Part shown: one piece after another, positions 902 through 1,751 of the stretch
How positions within the stretch are numbered: the stretch's first letter is position 1
Layout of the letters: every line of letters begins with the position of its first letter
Sequence record: MT446390.1
Source: Escherichia phage TH12
Length of the DNA stretch: 64,000 nucleotides
Reading direction: 5' to 3' (one strand)
Program-made: the position numbers and the translations under genes
Notes under the pieces: generated by a model
Seen by the model: the letters and a program-made list of their open reading frames with translations, nothing else
Told to the model about the DNA's origin: nothing
Databases searched by the model: none

Positions 902-976
902 GGCCCTGTAGCTCAATGGGAGAGCTGTCAGCTCATAACTGATAGGTAGCTGGATCGAAACCAGCCAGGGTCACCA
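902..976 (+). tRNA. tRNA, anticodon CAT (Met or Ile2); CCA encoded
   Basis: Manual cloverleaf: acceptor GGCCCTG/CAGGGTC, D-arm GCTC/GAGC, anticodon loop CTCATAA, T-arm GCTGG/CCAGC. Confidence 0.75.
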
Positions 977-979
977 ATC

Positions 980-1056
<77 letters not shown>

Positions 1057-1074: not shown

Positions 1075-1419
1075 ATGAAAGGCAATATTTATTTTGTAGT
1101 TCATGATTTAACGTTTTATTTTAATGAATATGATACAGTTATTTCTCATCGATTGATTAATTCACTTTATCAGCATGCCGATTACATCTATGTTCAAAAT
1201 GAATTCGGACATTGGAAGTTCATTAAAAACCGTTCAGGGTTAACTAGTTTTGAATACTTTGATCGTAAAGACCTTTTAAACGAAATCCCATTGCAACATC
1301 GGTTTCAGAAACGTGAATCATTATATTATTGCCGTCATATACCAAACGCCGAATGTGTTAATGAAGCGATTAATCTATGGCGTCGGCGTCGAGAGCAAAT
1401 TGATGATATGCCAAAATAA
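1075..1419 (+). CDS. hypothetical protein (114 aa)
   Basis: ATG at 1075 after GAGGAAAA; the track's TTG start at 1027 would overlap the tRNA. Confidence 0.5.
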   Translation: MKGNIYFVVHDLTFYFNEYDTVISHRLINSLYQHADYIYVQNEFGHWKFIKNRSGLTSFEYFDRKDLLNEIPLQHRFQKRESLYYCRHIPNAECVNEAINLWRRRREQIDDMPK

Positions 1420-1723
1420 GAAGCCGGGTCGCTACCGGCAAGTCGTCGGACTGATGTTCCCTGAGTAAGGACTGGTCTTAATAAATCTTTACGATTTGTT
1501 AATATCCCCTTACATCACAGCAGAAACGGCGCACAGAATTATCGATTCGAGGAAATATCTTTGCCGTAAGCCGAGTAGCGTTTTTGACGGAACGTTCGGA
1601 TATGGTCGAGATATGGCCTTTTAAAAATATTGAGTAGCGTCAACTGCTTAATAACCGGGTTCGAATCCCGGCGTTTCGTACAAACACTTGCCTTAGTAGG
1701 TGGAAACCCCGACAAGGTATATA

Positions 1724-1751
1724 GCCCCTTCCGAAAGGTTGGGGCTTTTTT
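1724..1751 (+). terminator. intrinsic terminator (GC stem, GAAA loop, T-run)
   Basis: GCCCCTTCC-GAAA-GGTTGGGGC followed by TTTTTT. Confidence 0.6.

Follow-up and report, generated by a model that had tools for sequence, protein, structure and literature searches.

A noncoding interval with orthologs of two T4 stable RNA genes

Close to the start of a 64,000-nucleotide (nt) stretch of the Escherichia phage TH12 genome (record MT446390.1; hereafter the window), two tRNA genes and a short open reading frame (ORF) are followed by an interval of ∼300 bp (1420–1720) that leads up to a terminator. Judged by homology to annotated relatives, this interval holds copies of two stable RNAs of the T-even phages, RNA D (species 2) and RNA C (species 1), which are encoded by rnaD and rnaC. 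All positions are window coordinates, and all listed features lie on the plus strand unless stated (Table 1). A sequence search identified the JS09/HX01/LF82 group as the nearest relatives of this T4-like phage. The initial annotation had treated the interval as one element, either a homolog of the T4 stable RNAs or a decayed tRNA. Two separate RNA genes are present instead; the first option holds for both, and the second is weighed below.

A search with the segment 1420–1760 (341 bases; megablast and blastn) matched ∼800 records of T4-like phages. Under the match, RB6 and T4 are annotated with rnaD ("species II RNA") and rnaC ("small, stable RNA; species 1 RNA"), and we transferred the RB6 boundaries by alignment. 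The TH12 rnaC is identical to the annotated RB6 gene at 139/139 positions and to that of T4 at 137/139, with two differences. For rnaD (∼1416–1536), 109/121 positions agree with RB6 and 104/121 with the T4 counterpart (86%–90%). The two genes adjoin with a 5-nt spacer, ORF 1075–1419 separates rnaD from tRNA-Arg, and the junction CCAAAAUAAGAAG is kept. The rnaC copy shows what characterizes the family, namely full-length homology, a position in a tRNA cluster upstream of the terminator, the same strand and the consensus fold. It is also the sole match in the window of an rnaC covariance model (R1), with a score of 158 bits from a model whose training set includes the window sequence. Both RNAs fold more stably than shuffled sequence (z-scores of −4.55 for 1542–1680, −3.56 for 1416–1536 and −5.62 for 1416–1755). 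In T4, RNAC and RNAD are late RNAs, as seen by RNA-seq and northern blot, with a stable species of ∼140 nt for RNAC (PMC9697503). The two RNAs have been known from phage T4 since the 1970s, and our finding is real and not new.

Table 1. Features in and around the stable-RNA interval of TH12 (MFE, minimum free energy fold)
Feature	Position	Strand	Basis and remarks
tRNA-Met (CAU)	902..976	+	ARAGORN; Rfam tRNA 59.4 bits; first gene of a small tRNA operon
tRNA-Arg (UCU)	980..1056	+	ARAGORN; Rfam tRNA 71.1 bits; directly abuts rnaD in T4 and RB6
114-aa ORF, phrog_3355	1075..1419	+	PHROG match, E 5.7e-50; between tRNA-Arg and rnaD
rnaD ortholog (species 2 RNA)	1416..1536	+	RB6 boundaries via alignment; consensus fold
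rnaD hairpin 1, GCCGG-GUCGCUA-CCGGC	1423..1439	+	7-nt loop invariant in 14 sequences
rnaD long imperfect hairpin	1442..1534	+	RNAalifold, pair counts, MFE; base GUCGUCG / CGGCG-CAC invariant
rnaC ortholog (species 1 RNA)	1542..1680	+	139-nt tRNA-derived four-way junction; homology, consensus fold
rnaC acceptor-like stem, 5' strand CGAUUCG	1543..1549	+	pairs with 1672–1678; 7 pairs including two U.U
rnaC arm I	1550..1619	+	70-nt elongated hairpin at the D-arm position; many compensatory pairs in helices 2–5
rnaC loop 1, UUGACG	1584..1589	+	apex of arm I; exact complement of 1638–1643
rnaC arm II	1628..1653	+	10-bp stem, 6-nt loop, anticodon-arm position; 8/9 counted pairs compensatory
rnaC loop 2, CGUCAA	1638..1643	+	loop of arm II; proposed kissing partner of loop 1
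rnaC T arm, CCGGG-UUCGAAU-CCCGG	1655..1671	+	continuous with the 3' acceptor strand, a tRNA feature
rnaC acceptor-like stem, 3' strand CGUUUCG	1672..1678	+	consensus fold, pair counts
U-ACA tail, in place of tRNA discriminator and CCA	1679..1682	+	annotated mature 3' end at 1680
3' trailer hairpin (CUUGCC...GACAAGG)	1681..1723	+	MFE; between rnaC and terminator; conserved versus T4
Intrinsic terminator of the tRNA/stable-RNA operon	1724..1751	+	GCCCCUUCC-GAAA-GGUUGGGGC, then U6

No standard tRNA has been overlooked here, because ARAGORN and Rfam call only the tRNA-Met and tRNA-Arg genes upstream. Within 1420–1720, ARAGORN found no tRNA and no tmRNA, and Rfam gave no match at the gathering threshold. 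Rfam searches of the interval at E up to 10 returned sub-threshold matches only, resting on the T arm or the terminator; we treated the tRNA-Sec, NsiR1, PyrR and isrK matches among them as chance. The best match in the tRNA clan was tRNA-Sec, at 16.6 bits (E 1.5) versus a gathering score of 47. The same searches revealed no Rfam family for rnaC or rnaD.

rnaC is built on the acceptor and T arm of a tRNA

Our comparison covered 29 distinct rnaC sequences, drawn from 10 or more T4-like genera. The records include Tequatrovirus, Karamvirus, Moonvirus, Gelderlandvirus, Winklervirus, Kanagawavirus and Marfavirus, together with the window copy, Citrobacter phage Ursula and IMG/VR contigs; the copies in Pectobacterium phage PM2 (Mosugukvirus) and Erwinia phage COW86c were examined apart from this set. 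RNAalifold returned a four-way junction in which 25 of 40 pairs are compensatory. Over the 29 sequences, 96.6% of the cells are paired as standard pairs and 26 pairs show double changes, counts that overstate the number of independent events since the sequences share ancestry, though the signal spans all helices. When partners were moved by 1–3 columns, only 37%–50% of cells were paired. None of 500 shuffles reached the observed value on four of five measures, and one of 500 did so for the count of further pair types.

The length of rnaC stays within 138–141 nt across at least 10 genera. At the base of the fold, the third pair of the acceptor-like stem covaries, being A-U in nine sequences and G-C in 20. 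The middle pair of the T stem is U-A in 15 sequences, G-C in 11, A-U in two and U-G in one. Arm I has a wholly different sequence in several genera with the total length of the RNA unchanged. Every homolog that we read has GU[A/C]CA after the acceptor stem, and the tail is U-ACA in almost all of them; Marfavirus F48 and PM2 have a true U-CCA. The consensus fold of rnaC contains no 7-nt anticodon loop, and the RNA therefore cannot decode. Taken together, covariation shows rnaC to be a tRNA descendant that retains the acceptor/T-arm module.

The first hairpin of the interval is the 5' hairpin of rnaD, four bases past the TAA (1417–1419) of the preceding ORF, and the element noted as T-arm-like belongs to rnaC as its T arm; the initial annotation had located both correctly and was right that the interval has no convincing ORF. 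The T-arm motif CCGGG-TTCGAAT-CCCGG occurs once in the window, against 0.01 occurrences expected by chance even with two mismatches allowed. The initial annotation had been unable to fold a full cloverleaf around it. There is indeed no standard one, but a cloverleaf-like fold of 139 nt without an anticodon loop does surround the T arm.

The suggestion that the T arm is the remnant of a dead tRNA, with neutral spacer around it, draws on the lack of a call by ARAGORN or the Rfam tRNA model and on the score of 16.6 bits, which comes from the T arm and part of the acceptor alone. The suggestion is contradicted by the covariation, which a neutral remnant would not show. Selection on the structure of rnaC is strong: all 139 nt are conserved, with 26 compensatory pairs, invariant loops and a length of 138–141 nt across at least 10 genera. 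In T4, the ortholog gives rise to a discrete RNA that accumulates (PMC9697503). We regard decay as extremely improbable.

We also considered a different acceptor, to which the Rfam match pointed, a tRNA-Sec-like helix of 9 bp between 1587–1595 and 1671–1679. It showed no compensatory change and 33 broken cells, did no better than shuffles and was rejected. The acceptor stem at the 5' end, which we prefer, has all its cells paired (100%), shows covariation at one pair and becomes a perfect helix in PM2, where the first pair is A-U and both U.U mismatches are replaced by U-A, giving an uninterrupted 7-bp helix.

The PM2 rnaC (L228, 329–471) is the most divergent that we found, with its perfect 7-bp acceptor and encoded U-CCA. 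Its acceptor also has a G.U at the 3:70 position, seen only in PM2. In tRNA and tmRNA, G3.U70 serves as the identity determinant for alanine. The pair being limited to PM2, we do not take alanylation to be a property of the rnaC family. In Winklervirus-type homologs the T stem is kept and its loop is UGCAUCC or UGCAUGC, not UUCGAAU (L018, 1426–1565; L038, 5960–6099; L094, 4203–4342).

Complementary loops in the two arms of rnaC

The apical loops of arms I and II are exact complements. By a simple calculation, the chance of such complementarity for two given 6-nt loops is ∼1 in 4096. The loops UUGACG/CGUCAA are unchanged in 25/29 sequences, and in the other four, of Marfavirus type, they read UUGGCG/CGCCAA, an A-U to G-C change on both sides together. 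All six inter-loop pairs are standard pairs in 29/29 sequences, and the single-sequence MFE of F48 forms the loop–loop helix directly. This conservation and one covariation event suggest that a UUGACG/CGUCAA kissing loop locks the two long arms together. A lock of this kind would close and compact the RNA and probably protect it from nucleases.

A 9-nt direct repeat, GAGTAGCGT, lies at 1573–1581 and 1632–1640, in the 5' strands of the two hairpins that bear the complementary loops. The repeat, which the divergent versions of arm I lack, is a hint that one arm may be a duplicate of the other.

rnaD folds into two hairpins

Fourteen distinct rnaD sequences were compared. Their consensus fold consists of a short hairpin and a long imperfect one, with 94.4% of cells paired and 11 pairs changed on both sides (33%–51% paired in slid controls). 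Hardly any variation is seen in the first 48 nt and the last 25 nt. The pair at the base of the hairpin 1 stem is G-C in five sequences versus A-U in eight. In the long hairpin, the internal loops are invariant and the apex occurs in three unrelated sequence versions, all of them paired. The label "tRNA-like" that had been given to the interval fits rnaC and not rnaD, which is unrelated to tRNA and has nothing tRNA-like in its structure. A simple promoter/terminator scan flagged hairpin 1 on the minus strand, a call that we disregarded.

In T4-type phages that carry both genes, GAAACG at the 3' end of rnaD (1523–1528) is complementary to CGUUUC in the rnaC acceptor (1672–1677); the corresponding acceptor strand in phages with rnaC only is CGUUCC. 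The two segments could form an alternative pairing in a dimeric precursor.

An experimental result bears on rnaD in particular. A convergent single-nucleotide polymorphism (SNP) adaptive on host ECOR34 was found in rnaD, with a rise of the virulence measure (RBG) from 0.17 to 0.98 (PMC12685909). Such a SNP would suit a base-pairing regulatory RNA, mainly rnaD, whose invariant single-stranded segments pair with host or phage mRNA. The hairpin 1 loop GUCGCUA and the internal loops GACUGA and GAAA are unpaired and invariant within a covarying scaffold, as such a regulator would have them, and the authors of PMC9697503 call the T4 RNAs "small regulatory RNAs." Against this, no target is known, and the conserved loops of rnaC complement each other and are probably not free for a target. 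We judge regulation by base pairing unlikely.

Independent occurrence of rnaC and rnaD

The two genes are separate modules that occur independently across T4-like phages. In Karamvirus, Moonvirus, Gelderlandvirus and Erwinia phage COW86c, rnaC exactly occupies the space from tRNA-Trp to tRNA-Gly, without rnaD; its neighbors in Winklervirus LC53 are tRNA-Phe and tRNA-Trp. Conversely, Dhakavirus SHP1 lacks rnaC cleanly, and its rnaD continues straight into the 3' trailer (L006, 1196–1400); in Gaprivervirus VR20, rnaC is replaced by an unrelated structured sequence and a 127-aa ORF (L007, 1320–1830). The rnaC slot is thus a site of gene turnover, by replacement in VR20 and by deletion in SHP1. 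Among other relatives, T4 (segB) and Enterobacter phage CW742 each have a homing endonuclease gene in the tRNA region. Given the absence or replacement of rnaC and the SNP in rnaD, both RNAs look like accessory, host-dependent factors and not core functions.

A loose end-anchored pattern applied to viral and metagenome contigs, followed by nhmmer, yielded at least 13 further true rnaC homologs; most matches of the pattern itself were due to chance. A strict rnaC pattern found no copy, at that sensitivity, in 185,579 bacterial and archaeal genomes.

Many deposited T4-like genomes carry "hypothetical protein" coding sequences over rnaC and rnaD or leave the region unannotated, and one record has a "tRNA-Lys" there. 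The protein and tRNA-Lys calls look like annotation errors. That small proteins are encoded here is nevertheless a proposal with some footing, as several records have a "hypothetical protein" under the match and the interval does contain ORFs (1496–1624 and 1630–1773 on the plus strand, 1539–1715 on the minus strand). According to the ORF list, those within 1420–1720 are short (42–58 aa), overlapping and nonconserved. They straddle the rnaD/rnaC and rnaC/terminator boundaries, and what substitutions preserve is base pairs, not codons. Indels of 1–3 nt and the wholesale replacement of arm I would break any frame, and RB6 and T4 have noncoding RNAs annotated at this place. Coding function therefore has next to no credibility in our view. 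In the annotation of the window, two named genes replace a "possible RNA," and the overlying "hypothetical protein" ORFs are flagged as spurious; a covariance model of rnaC and rnaD would fix such misannotations elsewhere.

The RNAs as the probable tail of a tRNA operon

Transcription of the T4 cluster traverses all tRNA genes and terminates after the species I gene, and both the tRNAs and the species I and II RNAs derive from this precursor transcript (PMC2330249). By analogy with this documented case, TH12 rnaD and rnaC would be transcribed on the plus strand as the tail of the tRNA-Met/tRNA-Arg operon, in a transcript that also crosses the inserted ORF 1075–1419 and ends at the hairpin and U-run at 1724–1751. 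Host tRNA-maturation enzymes would then excise both RNAs from the polycistronic precursor. For rnaC, the retained acceptor, T arm and ACA end would let host RNase P and 3'-trimming enzymes release it in the manner of a tRNA. Recognition of this end by tRNA-processing enzymes would also explain why, in other genera, rnaC sits in an exact slot between two tRNAs.

The terminator had been placed correctly by the initial annotation: a G+C hairpin followed by a T run begins at 1724, and the element is annotated as "terminator" in related phage records. A simple promoter/terminator scan missed it because its stem contains U.U mismatches. The trailer hairpin in front of it is kept in SHP1 and VR20, both without rnaC, and may be a processing site or a 3' protective structure. 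The trailers of T4 and RB6 have an extra 9-nt segment (the UUGCCGCAAGG region) that is missing in the window. Directly 3' of the terminator, ∼35 nt upstream of ORF 1796–2422 (phrog_2280), lies TATAAATA (1753–1760), the T4 late-promoter consensus.

Upstream, the stop codon of ORF 1075–1419 overlaps the 5' end of rnaD. The ORF is not found at this position in T4 or RB6 and has no Pfam match. The tRNA-Arg/ORF/rnaD junction retains a T4-like CCAAA(A)UAAGAAG, and this sequence suggests that the ORF entered as a cassette at the tRNA 3' terminus. VR20 has a different ORF at the same spot, and Karamvirus has a phrog_3355 gene after its last tRNA.

The location at the operon end raises another explanation, in which the two RNAs act in cis, mainly protecting the upstream tRNAs from 3' exonucleases or organizing RNase E/RNase P processing and termination. 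The T4-type position, followed by the conserved trailer hairpin and terminator, would suit such a tail, as would the persistence of trailer and terminator where rnaC is lost (SHP1) or replaced (VR20). But in Karam-, Moon-, Gelderland- and Winklervirus, rnaC is inside the tRNA array and not at its end, and a mere protective hairpin has no need of invariant loop sequences. The T4 RNAs, moreover, persist as abundant late species (PMC9697503), and a point mutation in rnaD alters host performance (PMC12685909). A cis-acting tail accordingly appears improbable to us.

Interpretation

We consider it very probable that the observations have one joint explanation: The interval encodes rnaD and rnaC, both RNAs originate from the tail of the tRNA operon, and rnaC is a tRNA-derived RNA with a putative kissing-loop lock. 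As to its function, we speculate that late in infection rnaC most likely serves as a non-decoding mimic of tRNA and might bind or titrate, or be used by, a protein that recognizes the acceptor/T-arm module.

Several points weigh against this explanation. The transcript ends in TH12 are carried over from the T4 and RB6 annotation, and with ORF 1075–1419 inserted, 3' processing of tRNA-Arg cannot generate the 5' end of rnaD, unlike in T4. The alternative pairing of 1587–1595 with 1671–1679 is 87% paired over the 29 homologs. Winklervirus-type homologs have no canonical T loop, and T-loop recognition is hence not universal. For the kissing loop, the case consists of full conservation and one clean compensatory event in a single clade. 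The PM2 loops, GAGACG/CGUCAU, form four Watson–Crick pairs and one G.U around an A.A mismatch. Arm I is much longer than arm II, such that an intramolecular kiss requires bends, and the loop data would fit pairing between two molecules equally well. Finally, a mimic or decoy function is speculative, and reviews call the function of RNA C and RNA D unknown (PMC3014915).

A bolder version makes rnaC a distinct class of locked tRNA mimic, its decoding half replaced by two arms that a conserved 6-bp kissing loop clamps, that acts in trans on a host tRNA-recognizing factor (for example, as decoy or inhibitor of a tRNA-targeting defense nuclease or of a processing or modification enzyme), with rnaD as a second, independent host-range determinant, at which the ECOR34-adaptive SNP hints (PMC12685909). 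We hold this version only tentatively and think it rather doubtful.

The role of T4 RNA C and RNA D is reported as unknown (PMC3014915, PMC9697503, PMC12685909), and the two are among the oldest sequenced phage RNAs still without an assigned function. In the literature that we searched, which lay outside the primary papers of the 1970s–80s and the 2003 T4 genome review, we found no published function or kissing-loop model. The same literature, again exclusive of the original papers, held no description of the covarying loops, the acceptor repair in PM2, the ACA/CCA tail or the presence/absence pattern, and priority cannot be claimed for them. Our insight is incremental on a known element, and no new element was discovered. 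What the analysis offers is a set of experimental handles: independent modules, an rnaC that occupies a tRNA slot, a covarying acceptor, an ACA/CCA tail, complementary loops and phages that naturally are without rnaC.

Comparison with known systems

Six-base loop–loop kissing complexes are formed by HIV TAR–TAR* and by RNA I/RNA II of ColE1. As in these, two hairpin loops of ∼6 nt in rnaC are fully complementary; the differences are that the rnaC loops belong to one molecule with very unequal arms and that their pairing is deduced from conservation and one covariation event, not from a solved structure.

The tRNA-like domain of tmRNA and the bacterial YrlA/Y RNAs are non-decoding RNAs that keep an acceptor/T-arm module and have the rest replaced. 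Unlike tmRNA, which joins a tRNA-like domain to a tag reading frame and pseudoknots, rnaC is without a tag reading frame. The Rfam tmRNA_permuted model reached 10.1 bits, against a gathering threshold of 47, and its match covers just the T arm. No Y-RNA family, with a Ro-binding stem beside the tRNA-like module, is among the Rfam matches of the interval up to E = 10, in a release (Rfam 15) that presumably contains the bacterial Y RNA/YrlA families. By the models applied, the interval is not a tRNA, a tmRNA or a Y RNA; what rnaC shares with them is the acceptor/T-arm module.

With canonical tRNA (RF00005), rnaC has in common a 7-bp acceptor continuous with a 5-bp T stem, the UUCGAAU loop, a four-way junction, a U followed by ACA or CCA as 3' tail and a place inside tRNA arrays. 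It differs in its length of 139 nt, in having no D arm and no 7-nt anticodon loop and in the mutually complementary loops of the arms that replace them, and neither the tRNA model nor ARAGORN makes a call.

The T4 RNAs are orthologs of those in TH12. For rnaD, the two phages share the fold in two domains and the position just ahead of rnaC. Its other neighbor differs: tRNA-Arg directly precedes it in T4 and RB6, whereas here the 114-aa ORF intervenes. The apical third of its long hairpin diverges in sequence. For rnaC, strand and place are the same in T4, with rnaD before it and the operon terminator after it, and the RNA itself differs in nothing of substance; the contrast is upstream, where T4 has eight tRNAs and segB and TH12 has two tRNAs and an ORF.

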